A stretch of DNA of 32,000 nucleotides from Nitrosococcus oceani ATCC 19707 (lineage in GTDB: Bacteria; Pseudomonadota; Gammaproteobacteria; Nitrosococcales; Nitrosococcaceae): assembly GCF_000012805.1 (NCBI RefSeq), contig NC_007484.1, positions 2,070,001 to 2,102,000 on the forward strand, read 5' to 3'. Below the pieces are notes generated by a model. That model did no database searches, had not been told where the DNA came from, and was given only the letters and a program-made list of their open reading frames with translations. Both the position numbers and the translations under genes were made by a program. Shown here one piece after another: positions 22,754 through 27,798 of the stretch; position 1 is the stretch's first letter; the number at the start of each line of letters is the position of its first letter.

Positions 22754-23794
22754 ATGAAAAAAGATGAAAAAAAGATGGTATTGAGCCCCACGGATATAGC
22801 CAGTGCCCAAAAAGCATACAGCGCTGTGGTGGGAAGTTTTTTAGATCCTCGGAAACAGCTAGCCAATGTGATTGGCATGGGAATAGGCGTAAAATGGACT
22901 AAGGGCGAGCCTACGGGAAAACCCGCATTGGTAGTACTGGTTACTCAAAAATTAGCAAAAAATGAGCTAAGCCCATCTAACATGGTCCCCAATAAGCTCC
23001 AGGAAATGCAAACCGATGTCCTTGCCATAGGGTACCCGTTAGCCGGTCAAGCGAAGACAAGTATTCAGACCTTAGGAAACCGGGTCCGTCCAGCAGAAGG
23101 CGGCTATAGCGTGGGACATAAAGATATTACTGCGGGCACCATCGCTACTTGTGTCTATGATATTTTGCCAGAGGGCAGCGTAAGCCCACCCTCCCAGGGG
23201 ATTGGTATTCCTTCCAATTACTACCTCCTTAGCAACAACCATGTACTCGCCAACAGTAACGCCGCTTCTTTAGGCGATTCCATTCTTCAACCTGGTCCCT
23301 ACGATGGAGGCACGGACCCGGCGGATCGTATTGCAAGCTTGAGCCGCTTTATCCCCATCACCTTTGACCCTCCGGTGCCTCAAGGAGATCATAACAACCT
23401 TGTAGATGCCGCTATCGCCCAAGTGGAATTTCAGGATGCTGATCGAAAAATTTATTGGATTGGCGACGTTCGAGGCTGGCGCCAGAAACGTGATGTAGCA
23501 GTAGGTATGCCAGTGAAAAAAACTGGCCGCACCACCCATTTCACCATGGGCAGAATAACAGCGATAAACGCCACGGTTAACGTCGGTTATGGCGGTGGCA
23601 AGGTGGCGCGGTTCAGGGATCAGATCATTACGACACCTATGTCCGCAGGCGGCGATTCTGGCTCGTTAGTGACAACTCTGGACAATATTGCGGTCGGTTT
23701 GCTGTTTGCCGGTTCCTCAGTAGCAACCATCGTAAATCAAATTGAGAACGTGCGCTCGCTATTGCGAGTGGAAGTCGCGGAACAAATTCTGTGA
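22754..23794 (+). CDS. Chymotrypsin-fold (S1-like) serine protease with an N-terminal pro-region-like module and no recognisable signal peptide (346 aa)
   Basis: The catalytic triad is in canonical order and context. These are His163 in LLSNNHVLAN (nt 23240-23242), Asp218 in NLVDAAIAQV (23405-23407) and Ser302 in SAGGDSGSLV (23657-23659). The N-terminal approximately 100 aa is non-catalytic. GGGAGAAAG lies upstream of the ATG. Confidence 0.8.
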   Translation: MKKDEKKMVLSPTDIASAQKAYSAVVGSFLDPRKQLANVIGMGIGVKWTKGEPTGKPALVVLVTQKLAKNELSPSNMVPNKLQEMQTDVLAIGYPLAGQAKTSIQTLGNRVRPAEGGYSVGHKDITAGTIATCVYDILPEGSVSPPSQGIGIPSNYYLLSNNHVLANSNAASLGDSILQPGPYDGGTDPADRIASLSRFIPITFDPPVPQGDHNNLVDAAIAQVEFQDADRKIYWIGDVRGWRQKRDVAVGMPVKKTGRTTHFTMGRITAINATVNVGYGGGKVARFRDQIITTPMSAGGDSGSLVTTLDNIAVGLLFAGSSVATIVNQIENVRSLLRVEVAEQIL

Positions 23795-23807
23795 AAGATT
23801 AGATCCT

Positions 23808-24501: not shown

Positions 24502-27500
24502 ATGGCAGAACAGCAAAGCCCCGTGCTACCTCTTTCGGGGATGGTGCTCTTATTAGCGATTATTAGCGCGGTCGTTTATCAGGAAACTCCCTTACAAGGA
24601 TCACGCCCAACGGCGGAATTCCAGGAAGGACTCTCTGTTCAAGGCATCGAAGATGTGCCAGCTCGCCTGTGGCAAGATCCCTTTGCCGCAGTGAAACGCA
24701 ATTCTATCCGCAAGGATGATACTCATCCATCGGAGAAGGATATTTCACCCTGTCAGTCTGATAAACCTGTTCTTCGTCACACCCTTTTCGAGCTTTTTTG
24801 CCAAATTAAAAAGGAGCAGCGAGCTGATGCCGCGGCAACCCCACTCATCGTAATGGGAGTAATGATGTTCGGCGGTCCTTATGCTGAAAGCAGCGAATGG
24901 CGGTTACGTAGCCGCTATACGGTAGTCTCTGCGCTAGGCAGAGCAAATTATATCCCCAAAGACTCTGAGCATATTGGCTTCGTAGACCTGCTGAAAAGCA
25001 GCAGTTGTTCAAAAGAAAATATAGAAAATTGTCCGGCAGCCAAGCTCCCACGTATTATTCCCTATGAATGGTTTTACCCTGCTGACAATGAGAAACACCC
25101 TCCTCTACTGGTGCTTTGGCTTGATGACGGCGCCTTCGGCAAGTACCCCTTAAGCAGGCTGATTGCCTTACAGCGCCTGCTCCAGCAAGAAAATAATTAT
25201 AACTTTCATTTTAAAATTCTAGGGCCGACGGGTTCAAGCAGCCTGCTGACGATGGTAAAGGAAATCGAAAATTTTTTATGGCAACAGCCCAATAGCATAA
25301 AATCACCGGCGCAAGCCGAGCATTCAGAGCTGCCCACCGATAAGCCCTCTCAGAATACCTTTGCAATCTATTCACCTTCCGCCACGGTATCAACGGGTAT
25401 AGCAGGCAAACCGTTTTCAATGCTTGAAATAAAAGAATCCCTTGCCAAGCAATTCCAACAAATTGGAATAAATTTTTATCGAACGATTAATCATGATTGG
25501 GACCTTGCCTTAACGTTAATAGACGAATTAAAGCGCCGAGGAATCAATGTTATTTGCGATCCCGGAGAGGATCACCGCCAGCCAATACCTAATAATCAAT
25601 ATAATACGGGAAACAACCTTGGTTCTGCCACCTTAGCTGACAGCAAAGACACACTTGAAGCACACACGGATCATATCGTACTTATTGCCGAATGGGATAC
25701 ACTTTATGGACGCTCTCTACCAAAATATTTTGAATGCGCGATTGCAGCTCGGCACGTTCATCTAAGCACGAATCTCCCTCAGACAAAATCACCCATCAAA
25801 CAGCATTGTGAAACACAATGGATTCACCGGTTCAGCTACCTTCGTGGCATTGATGGACAACTCCCCGGCAAACAGCAGCCAAGAAGCACAAAAAATTTTC
25901 AACCGACTGCAAAAAACAACTCGATCGAAACAATTACCCTAGATAGGAAAAAGCAAATTGAGCGGCCAGTGGGAAGAGGCCAATTCGACTATATACACCG
26001 GCTTTCCCGACAGATTTACAGGCTCCAAAAAGAATTACAGCGAGACAATAAAGAGATCAAAGCCATCGGCGTCCTGGGCAGTGACGTCTACGATAAATTG
26101 CTAATATTACAGGCCCTCAAAAACCGTTTTCCAAACGCTATATTCTTTACCACCGATCTCGATGCCCGCCTCTTTCACCCCGCCGAATATGAATGGGCTA
26201 GAAATTTGGTCGTCGCTTCGTCTTTCGGCCTCCAATTAAACCCTCAATTACAGCAAGACATACCACCTTTCAGAAGTGCTTATCAGACGTCACTATTCTA
26301 TGCCGCCTTGCTTGCCATCACCCATGCTCATCCTGGACGGCAGGATCTTTTTCAAAAACTCCTTGGACCCGCGCCTTCTTCTTCGTCGCCTACCCAGAGG
26401 CAACTAAGCCAAGACAGGCTACAAAAATTACTTAAACCTCGAATCTTTGAAATCGGTTATAGCGGCCCTGTCGATCTTAGTGTGCAAGACTCTCACTTAC
26501 ATGTACCGCGGGAAAATCCTTTTACTCAGCCTCACCCTGTATATAGCATAATTGCCTTGGTGCTGTTGTCGCTCCTATTATATTTATCCAGCGATCCGGT
26601 GATGAATGGTATCCACGCTATTTTTAAAGGCATCAGAACCCATCCTGTTGGCTCCTTTCTGGGAGTTATCTTATTTGCCGCAGCCATCACGGTACTCCTA
26701 TTATGGCTACTGCCCGCCATAATCCTCGCCCAGGGGGAAGGATGGTGGCGAGAGGAAGATCCCGTATTATGGTTCGAAGGAATCAGCATTTGGCCCAGTG
26801 AACTGCTCAGAATAACTGCCGCCTTGCTTGCCTTCCTATTTATCCGTAAAGCATCCCACGATATCCAAAATAGTAATAAGGCCCTCACGCAAGCATTTTT
26901 GTTACCGCAGCAACCCAACGGTCAATTAGCGAGAAATGTTTTAAAAAAAACCAGAATGGGAATTCTGATTCACAGATGGCAGCAAGCGGGCGTTTCAGGC
27001 CAACGAGATGTCACCACCCTCTGGCAACAACATCTTGCCCTTAGCGCCAAATGGCCACGCCTGAAGCGGGTTATGCTCTACGTAATCCTGTTTCTTGGCT
27101 TTGGTTTTTCTTTAATGGAGTTGCTTGGCTATCCCAACCACCCTTATCGCGGCGATTTCAGCCGCTGGATTAATTTCTCGGTATTGCTGTTCAGCGTCGG
27201 ATTTATGTTAATTCTAGTGTTTTGGGTCGTGGATGCCACCCGTCTATGCGCCCAATTTATCGATCATCTCTCTACGCAGGAACTTCCTTGGAATAGAGAA
27301 AAACTGGCGCTTCTTTCCCAACGGTATCAGATTACAGAGGATTATCTTGGACCGGTGCTCAAAATCAGATTAGTGGCGGATCAGACTATCGTAATCTCAC
27401 GGCTGATCATCTATCCATTTATTATCTTGGCCCTCATGATTATATCCCGCCTCTCCTATTTCGATAACTGGACCATCCCCATGGGACTGATTATTGTTTT

Positions 27501-27798
27501 TTTGCTCTTATTCCTTTATGTCCTTATCTGTGCTATCACCCTGGAGCGGGCAGCGGAAAACGCCCGCGCTCAGACTAGGGATTGGCTAATGGAAAAGCAT
27601 ATTGGCATCAAAGGAGATCCCGCCGCTCCTAACTATCGCAGCGAACAACTACAGCTTCTCATTGAAGATCTCAGAAATATTCAGCGGGGAGCCTATGTGC
27701 CTTTTATTCAGCAGCCCATGGTCAGGGCTATTTTATTACCTTTTGGAGGAGTGGGAAGCATAGCATTCATCGAATATTTATACAGCATATTGGGATAG
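24502..27798 (+). CDS. Large polytopic membrane protein of unrecognised family (1098 aa). It has an N-terminal TM anchor, a soluble region of about 650 aa and a C-terminal cluster of about 7-8 TM helices.
   Basis: This long uninterrupted ORF begins 35 nt after the preceding gene. The hydrophobic segments are:
- residues ~13-25
- ~684-702
- ~722-750
- ~770-792
- ~862-882
- ~897-920
- ~972-995
- ~1003-1028
- ~1075-1095

The soluble region contains FKILGPTGSSSLLTMV and IKAIGVLGSDVYDKLLILQALKNRFPNAIFFTTDL. These are loosely reminiscent of type-I periplasmic-binding-fold strands, but this is unverified. Confidence 0.7.
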   Translation: MAEQQSPVLPLSGMVLLLAIISAVVYQETPLQGSRPTAEFQEGLSVQGIEDVPARLWQDPFAAVKRNSIRKDDTHPSEKDISPCQSDKPVLRHTLFELFCQIKKEQRADAAATPLIVMGVMMFGGPYAESSEWRLRSRYTVVSALGRANYIPKDSEHIGFVDLLKSSSCSKENIENCPAAKLPRIIPYEWFYPADNEKHPPLLVLWLDDGAFGKYPLSRLIALQRLLQQENNYNFHFKILGPTGSSSLLTMVKEIENFLWQQPNSIKSPAQAEHSELPTDKPSQNTFAIYSPSATVSTGIAGKPFSMLEIKESLAKQFQQIGINFYRTINHDWDLALTLIDELKRRGINVICDPGEDHRQPIPNNQYNTGNNLGSATLADSKDTLEAHTDHIVLIAEWDTLYGRSLPKYFECAIAARHVHLSTNLPQTKSPIKQHCETQWIHRFSYLRGIDGQLPGKQQPRSTKNFQPTAKNNSIETITLDRKKQIERPVGRGQFDYIHRLSRQIYRLQKELQRDNKEIKAIGVLGSDVYDKLLILQALKNRFPNAIFFTTDLDARLFHPAEYEWARNLVVASSFGLQLNPQLQQDIPPFRSAYQTSLFYAALLAITHAHPGRQDLFQKLLGPAPSSSSPTQRQLSQDRLQKLLKPRIFEIGYSGPVDLSVQDSHLHVPRENPFTQPHPVYSIIALVLLSLLLYLSSDPVMNGIHAIFKGIRTHPVGSFLGVILFAAAITVLLLWLLPAIILAQGEGWWREEDPVLWFEGISIWPSELLRITAALLAFLFIRKASHDIQNSNKALTQAFLLPQQPNGQLARNVLKKTRMGILIHRWQQAGVSGQRDVTTLWQQHLALSAKWPRLKRVMLYVILFLGFGFSLMELLGYPNHPYRGDFSRWINFSVLLFSVGFMLILVFWVVDATRLCAQFIDHLSTQELPWNREKLALLSQRYQITEDYLGPVLKIRLVADQTIVISRLIIYPFIILALMIISRLSYFDNWTIPMGLIIVFLLLFLYVLICAITLERAAENARAQTRDWLMEKHIGIKGDPAAPNYRSEQLQLLIEDLRNIQRGAYVPFIQQPMVRAILLPFGGVGSIAFIEYLYSILG

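Follow-up and report, generated by a model that had tools for sequence, protein, structure and literature searches.

Do four genes packed closely on one strand of the Nitrosococcus oceani genome, encoding a protease, two small proteins (g2 and g3) and a 1098-aa membrane protein, constitute one system? They lie in a 32,000-nt stretch of DNA, the window (Table 1), and a preliminary description regarded them as a candidate four-gene module, apparently self-contained. What it said of the layout is borne out. The four ORFs are all on the + strand with tight junctions, and the 5′ gap, put at about 600 nt, is 602 nt, with a 104-aa ORF ending at 22151 before it. As described, norD is convergent at the 3′ end; it is the right boundary, outside both of the units distinguished below, and after it come norQ (AAA_5 and CbbQ_C by Pfam) and norB (COX1), the same nor arrangement being present beside the locus in N. 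halophilus. The A+T-rich island with an IS3 relic and a broken gcd is also real on the evidence of the GC profile, Pfam PQQ and tblastn: from about 19500 to 28000 the GC fraction is 0.35-0.48, the flanks having 0.51-0.59, and the gcd fragment and IS3 remnant (19422-19912) form the left edge of the low-GC stretch.

For g2 the possible starts are TTG 23742, GTG 23808 and GTG 23859, of which the last is taken because it is conserved with N. halophilus; the junction with the protease gene, otherwise an overlap or 13 nt, is 64 nt with this most likely start. The g2-g3 gap is 68 nt and that between g3 and the large gene 35 nt. No terminator or promoter signals in the locus rise above shuffled controls, which is uninformative either way about transcript structure.

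Table 1. Features of the locus, in window coordinates
Feature	Position (nt)	Strand	Length or residues	Basis or remark
gcd (PQQ dehydrogenase) fragment	19422-19616	+		Pfam PQQ, E 1.9e-10
IS3 OrfA remnant	19715-19912	+		tblastn against IS3-family transposases, 48-64% identity
Protease gene	22754-23794	+	346 aa	
Protease ABD homologue	22865-23053	+	about residues 38-100	NAL1_N, PDB profile
Protease S1 domain		+	about residues 113-346	holds H163, D218, S302
g2	23859-24161	+	100 aa	start conserved with N. halophilus
g3	24230-24466	+	78 aa	
Large protein gene	24502-27798	+	1098 aa	
TM0 of 1098-aa protein			residues 12-26	AF2 model
Venus-flytrap / type-I binding-protein domain	24589-26526	+	about residues 30-675	Foldseek; predicted periplasmic
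Linker helix of 1098-aa protein			about residues 690-712	AF2 model
7-helix core of 1098-aa protein			about residues 717-1098	AF2 model
norD	28017-29954	-		Pfam VWA; convergent with large gene; right boundary

Distribution of the four genes

Relatives of the 1098-aa protein occur in at least 511 genomes. Within ±10 kb of the large gene in the best 80 loci there is no relative of the protease, g2 or g3 (0/80), nor is there a conserved neighbour of any kind, no family being common to more than 12 of the 80; among metagenome loci, the large protein stands beside a protease relative in 0/80. The full quartet recurs only in N. halophilus, of the same genus, where order and spacing are conserved with N. 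oceani, the large protein being only 70% identical. As a four-gene module, then, the locus is not syntenic outside its genus, and the tie proposed between the large protein and the protease gives way to a large family with an independent distribution. The independence of the two units is a matter of observation, on the same footing as the domain identities, conserved residues, synteny and co-evolution described below, and the account of the locus as two unrelated units, adjacent only in the genus Nitrosococcus, is preferred at about even confidence. The spacing from g3 to the large gene is 35 nt in N. oceani and 16 nt in N. halophilus, and co-transcription of the two within the genus is allowed for.

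That all four genes are nevertheless one system, serving signalling or abortive infection through gating or processing of the 1098-aa protein by the protease, with the small proteins as inhibitors or substrates, is the least probable of the readings considered here. The shared strand, the tight spacing, the retention of order and spacing in N. halophilus despite 70% large-protein identity, and the low GC and IS remnant of the region are what it has in its favour, but co-localisation outside the genus is nil in both sets of 80, the protease and small genes are found in unrelated contexts including plasmids, the large gene lacks a conserved neighbour and PADLOC is negative. The statement that no named system matches the locus was correct, PADLOC and defence-system models being without match. 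The defence or abortive-infection reading is unsupported, with nothing from PADLOC and no defence genes recurrent beside the protease and its small neighbours.

The protease and its small neighbours

What kind of protease is it? Pfam NAL1_N (residues 40-84, E 2.5e-7) and Trypsin_2 both match above their cut-offs, PHROG 20754 ‘protease’ matches with E 1.5e-63, and when profile A3 is compared with the PDB, rice NARROW LEAF 1 (NAL1) ranks first (E 3.8e-13), spanning its ATP-binding domain (ABD) and protease domain, after which come Glu-specific protease and streptogrisins. The order of its parts is a conserved N-terminal segment (M8, L10), the ABD homologue and the S1 domain. The triad that had been read as intact does not vary among 25 close homologues or among 21 diverse ones, and the absence of a secretion signal is upheld, the N-terminus as read from the sequence having no hydrophobic signal. 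The residues of NAL1 with ATP-contact roles, R120, K139, D166 and V167 (PMC12012508), correspond in the bacterial proteases to K (68/70), K (70/70), D (70/70) and V (69/70), and in that of the window to K47, K66, D88 and V89. Judged by sequence, the protease is a bacterial homologue of NAL1, consisting of ABD and S1 domain, and it is cytosolic. NAL1 itself is an ATP-stabilised enzyme active only as a hexameric cage, and by analogy the bacterial protease may form a cage.

The two small genes were described as stand-alone copies of the N-terminal module of the protease. Paralogy stands for both, as Pfam NAL1_N matches g3 (E 7.5e-4), the N-terminal part of PHROG 20754 matches g3 (3.8e-8) and g2 (1.3e-3), and the protease ABD, g2 and g3 can be aligned together. 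‘Stand-alone copy’ does not do justice to g2, which also carries an N-terminal signal anchor, IFAIVLILVSLGY, together with a conserved pair of cysteines (GDCQGTPC), and from which most ATP ligands are gone; with start and sequence conserved in N. halophilus (66% identity), it is a predicted membrane-anchored or exported ABD paralogue. Exhaustive search of its family gave 1382 representatives, and in the top 150 members an N-terminal hydrophobic segment is present in 105, a lipobox-like motif in 40 and the cysteine pair in 119. g3 is a predicted cytosolic stand-alone ABD paralogue and the protease’s conserved partner. The K/K/D set of ATP ligands is for the most part retained in g3-like genes, N replacing the conserved D in that of N. 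oceani. There are two partner types, the g3 type retaining basic and acidic ATP ligands and the g2 type losing ligands and gaining signal and cysteine pair.

Could such proteins work in trans like pro-domains, catalysing folding of the protease, inhibiting it tightly or both, with a conserved C-terminal tail in the active site? The catalytic domain is nearest to streptogrisin-type, pro-region-dependent enzymes (1hpg, E 1.8e-9; SGPB, SGPA, alpha-lytic protease), the small proteins, at about 75 aa, are the exact counterpart of the module lying ahead of the protease domain, and they end in a conserved G-x-[VI]-x-A-Q beyond which are only 0-6 residues. However, a profile of 31 small proteins, compared with all PDB sequences, finds the NAL1 ABD only (E about 0.06-0.1) and no pro-region even at E <= 10, the protease retains its own covalently attached copy, and the AQ motif is the last strand of the domain, is present in distant proteases too, and is followed by a tail of variable length. 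The possibility is an unlikely one, and the earlier term ‘pro-region-like’ is better replaced by homologue of the NAL1 ATP-binding domain, and the profile search brought out no sequence link to alpha-lytic-type pro-regions.

Other loci support the protease and small genes as a genuine, repeatedly found unit. Of 20 close relatives with sequence on both sides, 19 have a g3-like gene adjoining the protease, and a small gene is adjacent in 31 of the 43 loci that leave room to either side. The gap between the two has a median of 4 nt, and the protease has no other conserved neighbour. The pair is retained in Planctomycetota (Ca. Loosdrechtia) and on a Firmicutes plasmid (B. cereus), where the small protein has 49% identity, and the three-gene form is found in three gene orders, those of the window, of locus L091 (which L142 shares) and of L098. 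Between loci, pairwise identity of the protease correlates with that of the small protein (Mantel r = 0.67, reached by 0 of 999 permutations). Roughly one protease locus in four, usually that of a distant relative, is without a small gene, and the protease arrays on C. botulinum plasmids have none annotated, so the partner is not obligatory. Protease and stand-alone ABD are a widespread, unstudied two- or three-gene bacterial cassette.

Were this no more than tandem duplication, the small proteins would bind nucleotides or ligands independently and travel with the protease without interacting with it functionally. The large size of the g2 family, some members of which have no protease called alongside (on contigs of only 1.5-1.9 kb), and the proteases without a small gene are in keeping with it, but the g3 pairing persists across phyla with few-nt gaps, gene-order changes and correlated divergence, because of which a neutral by-product is highly unlikely. 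Instead, we infer that the small proteins are probably physical partners controlling protease assembly or activity. Unit 1 (22754-24466) would be an accessory protease cassette, a NAL1-like cytosolic S1 protease with stand-alone ABD paralogues, in which the g3-type protein would be a stoichiometric partner, docking on the protease domain by an ABD-to-protease-domain contact of the kind that builds NAL1 trimers and, once docked, controlling assembly, gating or activity of the oligomer. The exported g2 type, presumably disulfide-bearing, would be a diverged offshoot of the ABD acting outside the cytoplasm. Such a partner cassette together with a separate orphan membrane protein is the best explanation of the locus as a whole, though one for which the balance is about level.

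Several observations sit awkwardly with the partner model. In the NAL1 homotrimer each protease-domain surface is already filled by the ABD of a neighbour, which leaves no obvious site for a free ABD. An exported location of g2 fits poorly with a cytosolic protease, and the g2 types on short contigs and the N for D of N. oceani g3 belong here also.

In Pepco/EACC1 modules as published, a small gene directly precedes that of a trypsin-like protease (PMC12642450). Might the cassette likewise be a protease-effector conflict module, its small proteins latent effectors made toxic by site-specific cleavage close to the C-terminus? Besides that layout, there is the conserved A-Q pair just ahead of a variable C-terminal tail, the cassette’s occurrence in unrelated, variable contexts, on plasmids and beside IS elements, and its identity of about 70-75% across phyla. 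However, a sensor domain of the STAND kind, present in the published systems (PMC12642450), is absent from the protease, the small proteins are paralogous to the protease’s folded ABD rather than being pore-forming propeptides, many of them end exactly at Q with nothing left to remove, PADLOC is negative and only 3 phage records carry a relative. Little credence is given to it.

The large membrane protein

The 1098-aa protein had been considered a multi-TM protein with no assignable motif and, indeed, neither Pfam, NCBIfam nor PADLOC matches it. It is a member of a large orphan family, with at least 694 homologues, all named ‘hypothetical’. Its AF2 model is confident (pLDDT 81.6, pTM 0.85) and retrieves mGluR5, T1R and LivJ-like proteins with Foldseek (E 6.5e-6 to 1e-4), matches to the Venus-flytrap receptor fold running from E 6.5e-6 to 3.4e-4 (probability 1.0, TM-score up to 0.60 on target), and ANF_receptor and Peripla_BP families give no sequence-level match. 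By the loop charges across the family, the Venus-flytrap domain lies on the outer side of the membrane and the long loops on the inner. The 8-helix membrane domain is predicted to be N-in and C-out, with short outer and long inner loops, long helices 4-6 and a broken last helix, and in two independent searches its top structural matches are insect GR/OR channels, a weak resemblance with TM-scores of only 0.22-0.33 and E about 0.04-0.1. Unit 2 (24502-27798) would couple a periplasmic Venus-flytrap ligand-binding domain to this multi-helix domain, and the likeliest role of the protein is that of a ligand-sensing receptor or ligand-gated channel.

Comparison with known systems

With mGluR, T1R and LivJ the 1098-aa protein shares the fold of residues about 30-675 and the coupling of an outer-side domain to a helical membrane domain. 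That membrane domain is not the class-C GPCR domain, an identity ruled out by the rmsd of about 31 A in full-length mGluR alignments. Insect odorant and gustatory 7TMICs have its N-in/C-out topology, loop pattern, long helices 4-6 and broken last helix, but it has one helix more and, in addition, a periplasmic domain of 650 aa, and the TM-score is as low as given above; the published prokaryotic 7TMIC set was restricted to proteins with exactly 7 helices (bioRxiv 10.1101/2023.08.30.555482).

Pepco/EACC1 defence modules resemble the cassette in gene layout and accessory or mobile setting, but they combine a sensor-protease fusion with a small latent pore former (PMC12642450), whereas the small protein of N. 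oceani duplicates the protease’s own ABD, and there is neither sensor domain nor PADLOC match. The streptogrisin/alpha-lytic group (1HPG, 1SGD, 1P01) is the closest catalytic-domain family after NAL1 and also has an N-terminal module of about 75 aa before the protease. Those enzymes are secreted and their pro-region, of no detectable sequence relation to the bacterial ABD module, is cleaved off, whereas the N. oceani protease is without a signal peptide and its module stays attached. Rice NAL1 (PDB 7Y77, 8HAS, 8PMM; PMC12012508), at 582 aa, differs from the 346-aa bacterial protease, which is without most of the N-terminal domain of NAL1 (residues 1-88) and without the C-terminal extension, and stand-alone ABD paralogues such as those beside the bacterial protease are not described for it. 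Nevertheless it is the best PDB relative by profile, and the two have in common an ABD directly before the S1 domain, the His/Asp/Ser triad, the ATP-contacting Lys/Arg, Lys, Asp and Val, and a cytosolic location without signal peptide.

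A NAL1-type protease and its free-standing ATP-binding domains

The rice protease NARROW LEAF 1 (NAL1) is agronomically important, and both the architecture of its cage and its structural ATP have only lately been worked out. The main finding here is a real, conserved and uncharacterised bacterial cassette in which a protease of NAL1 type is accompanied by free paralogues of its own ATP-binding domain (ABD). In the 346-aa protease of the window the ABD, which is what the Pfam model NAL1_N represents (30.8 bits, cut-off 27), lies directly N-terminal to the S1 protease domain (Trypsin_2, 29.3 bits, cut-off 27.6); about 37 residues precede the ABD, nothing follows the protease domain, and the plant-type N-terminal domain of NAL1 (residues 1-88) and its long C-terminal tail are absent. 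When the profile of an alignment of diverse homologues, A3, was run against the PDB, rice NAL1 came first, at E 3.8e-13 and with both domains covered, and below it were a Glu-specific protease, streptogrisins and alpha-lytic protease. The GDSGS and NNHV motifs align with those of NAL1, and the catalytic triad recognised in the preliminary description (H163, D218, S302) is invariant in both A3 and a further alignment, A2. Is the protein then of the streptogrisin or alpha-lytic type with a cleavable pro-region? This was rejected, as there is no signal, the N-terminus not being hydrophobic, just as was originally perceived, and no pro-region match; only the catalytic domains are related.

Residues 89-172 of NAL1 are its ABD, whose contact with a neighbouring protease domain builds trimers, which pair up into a hexameric cage, a trimer of dimers that is needed for activity; the ATP is structural, without hydrolysis, and the ATP-Mg ligands are R120, K123, K139, D166 and V167 (PMC12012508). 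In the alignments the bacterial proteases keep the candidate ATP ligands of a NAL1-type ABD, at K47, K66, D88 and V89 in the protease of the window, with the K123 equivalent being variable among the 70 proteases compared. Near the N-terminus a K-M-x-L segment is conserved, with M8 and L10 invariant, and this candidate strand-swap element is the sole hint of a NAL1-like hexameric cage.

Residues at the NAL1 ATP-Mg ligand positions in bacterial proteases and in the two types of small ABD paralogue
NAL1 ligand	Proteases	g3-type	g2-type (n=16)
R120	K 68/70	K/R 35/43	mostly lost
K139	K 70/70	K/R 43/43	mostly lost
D166	D 70/70	D 35/43	mostly lost
V167	V 69/70	V 41/43	V 5/16

The protease family comprises at least 7985 sequence clusters, with identities of 70-88% across Planctomycetota, Poribacteria, Spirochaetota and Proteobacteria, or about 70-75% between phyla, and relatives at 58% identity are carried by Bacillus plasmids. 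Bacterial NAL1 relatives are thus not only abundant but also plasmid-borne, and are mostly accompanied by a free-standing copy of the ABD. On the 53-kb Clostridium botulinum plasmid p3CbCSt (comparison locus L178) six paralogous proteases, with about 32% identity to that of the window, lie side by side at 1516-8002, no small ABD gene being annotated among the six, and several C. botulinum and C. novyi plasmids have 11-25 matching places per record. A phage origin of the protease was considered, as PHROG 20754 matches, and was rejected, just three phage records having a relative, at 29-32% identity. A relative annotated 'putative serine protease' is in the archaeal Aeropyrum coil-shaped virus (HE681887.1/NC_043427.1, 10508-11458; 29% identity over 83% of the length), and another, at 32% identity, is in an uncultured 484-kb phage.

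In the window the protease has two small ABD paralogues beside it, the membrane-anchored or exported g2 and the cytosolic g3, and the sole conserved neighbour of the protease elsewhere is a same-strand relative of one or other of them, separated from it by a median of 4 nt. It adjoins the protease in 31 of the 43 loci with room on both sides, in 19 of 20 close relatives, and is upstream in 27 of 30. The pair is also present in an anammox genome and, beside an IS66 element, on a B. cereus plasmid. Order is flexible: protease-g2-g3 in the window, g2-g3-protease in two comparison loci (L091, L142) and g3-protease-g2 in another (L098). Pairwise identities of the protease correlate with those of the small protein (r = 0.67, reached by none of 999 permutations). 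The g3-type proteins have a shortened first loop. Those of g2-type, for which an exhaustive search gave 1382 representatives, carry a signal anchor or a lipobox at the N-terminus, together with a G-x-C...C motif; among the best 150 of the 1382, a hydrophobic N-terminal segment is present in 105 and the cysteine pair in 119. (A word-indexed search with g3 yielded only 21 proteins because of the shortness of the query.) From the retention of ligands and the signal and cysteine features, g3 is taken to be a cytosolic free ABD and g2 an exported, diverged one. Three exported g2-type proteins (P0262, P0263, P0264) have 2-3 tandem ABD-like domains behind a lipoprotein-type signal, which suggests that the ABD-like domain may also serve as an extracellular repeat module.

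What do the small proteins do? Because the pairing is tight, there is co-evolution, the ATP ligands are retained and the ABD is the inter-subunit contact of NAL1, we argue that a g3-type protein may be a stoichiometric physical partner of the protease, and the pairing is probably translationally coupled. In the most economical model g3 would contact the protease domain in the manner of an ABD and, via that contact, would control oligomer assembly, gating or activity. A rival is that the small proteins act in trans as pro-domain-like foldases or inhibitors, in keeping with their having initially been termed pro-region-like. However, they have no detectable pro-region similarity: no relative of the alpha-lytic pro-region was found at E <=10, and the small-protein profile against the PDB gave only NAL1; homologue of the NAL1 ABD is the better name for the module. 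By analogy with protease-effector defence modules, a small protein could instead be an effector activated by cleavage, but among phage records just three have relatives, and no protein of the quartet has a match at E <=1 in PADLOC-DB 2.0, a 2023 library with cover up to the systems of that year, which also counts against the defence-system interpretation put forward at the outset. Alternatively, the small proteins may be mere co-travelling paralogues of the protease. With g3 as a partner of the protease being the reading preferred, the cassette offers a simple two-protein bacterial system with which to test the assembly and regulation of this class of protease.

The quartet and its setting

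Do the protease, g2, g3 and the gene 3' of them for a large membrane protein constitute one co-inherited module, as the preliminary description proposed? With a 30-sequence alignment of large-protein homologues (A1) as query, 80 genome loci were drawn, each with 10 kb on either side, out of at least 511 genomes. When the protease, g2 and g3 were run against these by phmmer, none of the 80 gave a hit (best E >1); the large-protein query, as positive control, regained its relative in all 80. The commonest neighbour family of the large gene is NnrS, in just 12 of the loci, all of them Nitrospira. Reciprocally, none of 80 metagenome loci fetched with the protease alignment has a relative of the large protein. 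Outside N. oceani the quartet was found only in N. halophilus, where it is again followed by norD, and where, against N. oceani, the protease is 88% identical, g2 66% and the large protein 70%; the genes upstream are not the same in the two species. Given no co-localisation in either set of 80 loci, and a quartet solely in N. halophilus, its adjacency is a lineage-specific accident of juxtaposition in Nitrosococcus and not a conserved module. The 70%-identical N. halophilus orthologue of the large protein was itself missed by the word-indexed protein search and the genome-contig scan returned neither Nitrosococcus genome; as close relatives can drop out of both collections, absence from them is not to be over-read. 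The outcome is a reason not to list the quartet as one defence system.

Features of the window at and around the quartet
Feature	Position	Strand	Remarks
Second low-GC stretch	7500-13500		GC 0.41-0.49; far from the quartet
64-aa PQQ glucose/alcohol dehydrogenase fragment, then 65-aa IS3-family OrfA remnant	19422-19912		
Low-GC stretch	~19500-28000		GC down to 0.35-0.48
DedA/VTT-domain membrane protein	20377-21195	-	near 104-aa coiled-coil gene
104-aa coiled-coil protein	21837-22151	+	C-terminal hydrophobic tail; no Pfam match above cut-off
Protease	22754-23794	+	346 aa
g2	23859-24161	+	100 aa from GTG 23859, start in common with N. halophilus
g3	24230-24466	+	78 aa
Large protein	24502-27798	+	1098 aa
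58-aa ORF	27819-27995	-	between large gene and norD; called in several assemblies; no family match
norD	28017-29954		convergent

Exact matches in GCA_007990675.1 and GCA_000740745.1 place the window in Nitrosococcus oceani. Locally, what had been read from the DNA held up well: the four same-strand ORFs and the gaps between them, the convergent norD on the 3' side, the A+T-rich stretch, and at its start a broken gcd gene and IS3 relic. Where the low-GC stretch starts on the left, the dehydrogenase fragment and OrfA remnant together record an earlier insertion or deletion. The coiled-coil and DedA/VTT genes are upstream of the cassette in the part of lowest GC (0.35-0.42), and N. halophilus has other genes at their position. 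The 58-aa ORF may be spurious. Rfam, tRNA and repeat searches around the low-GC island revealed no integration-site mark, and no RNA element in the 600-nt leader. A promoter and terminator scan of the locus gave signals no higher than those of shuffled controls and so is uninformative on operon structure.

The large membrane protein

The gene next to the cassette draws attention to a large orphan family with predicted Venus-flytrap and membrane domains. At least 694 homologues, every one named hypothetical, were found, many of them in NC10 bacteria, methanotrophs, Burkholderiales and, notably often, nitrifiers. In agreement with the initial view that no motif can be assigned, Pfam, NCBIfam and PADLOC are all without a match, a permissive Pfam search with the two halves of the protein gave only noise, and a 103-sequence profile against PDB sequences gave nothing significant. 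An AF2 model made with the 103 sequences has a pLDDT of 81.6 and a pTM of 0.85, and in it residues ~30-675 match 6n50, 5x2m, 4q6b and 3n0x in Foldseek (E 6.5e-6 to 3.4e-4, probability 1.0). The likeness of this bilobed alpha/beta fold is to the extracellular domain of mGluR5 (E 6.5e-6), to T1R taste receptors and to LivJ-like binding proteins (target TM-score up to 0.60), and on the model residues ~30-675 adopt a Venus-flytrap, or type-I periplasmic binding protein, fold.

In 12 Nitrospira loci (L016-L021, L027-L029, L038, L046, L058) a same-strand gene for an NnrS-like heme-copper membrane protein of ~408 aa lies ~1-2.5 kb (about 1.8 kb) downstream of the large-protein homologue, and in 9 of the 12 a 361-aa unknown protein is encoded between the two. 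The Nitrosococcus large gene abuts norD/Q/B rather than NnrS. These neighbours could reflect a nitric-oxide-related context, or shared ancestry only. A general link of the large gene to nitric oxide was rejected, as NnrS is beside it in the 12 Nitrospira loci only, and nor genes nowhere else.

For the membrane part, the best structural matches, both in the full-length search and with residues 640-1098 modelled separately (pLDDT 80.6), are insect gustatory and odorant receptor channels, but these matches are weak (E 0.03-0.1, TM-score 0.22-0.33, rmsd >10 A). In the 103 homologues the net charge is +3.3, +1.4 and +2.2 on the long loops, of 76, 46 and 59 aa, and -2.5, +0.8 and -0.9 on the short ones, of 14, 9 and 7 aa. 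From these charges the Venus-flytrap domain is predicted to be periplasmic and followed by a linker helix, and the 7-helix core (~717-1098) to be N-in and C-out, with short outer loops and long, positive inner ones. It is safer to regard the protein as a putative orphan-family membrane receptor or channel coupled to a Venus-flytrap domain. If its members are ligand-gated channels, the family has a bearing on how chemoreceptor channels arose and on sensing by bacteria of the nitrogen cycle.

The N-in/C-out orientation, with short outer and long inner loops, is among the traits listed for the superfamily of insect odorant and gustatory receptor channels, 7TMIC (bioRxiv 10.1101/2023.08.30.555482). 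In that superfamily TM4-6 are long and TM7 is split; as possible counterparts the model shows extended helices at 885-925 and 994-1038, and its final helix is broken. Unlike 7TMIC, it has one extra helix ahead of the 7-helix core. Membership of 7TMIC, at which the model hints, is a possibility, and it is on balance unlikely that the protein founds a bacterial family of fusions between a periplasmic Venus-flytrap domain for ligand binding and a 7TMIC channel domain. If it were to do so, the ligand-gated channel architecture would be new to description, its sensor module being that of class-C GPCRs and glutamate receptors and its pore module that of insect chemoreceptors.
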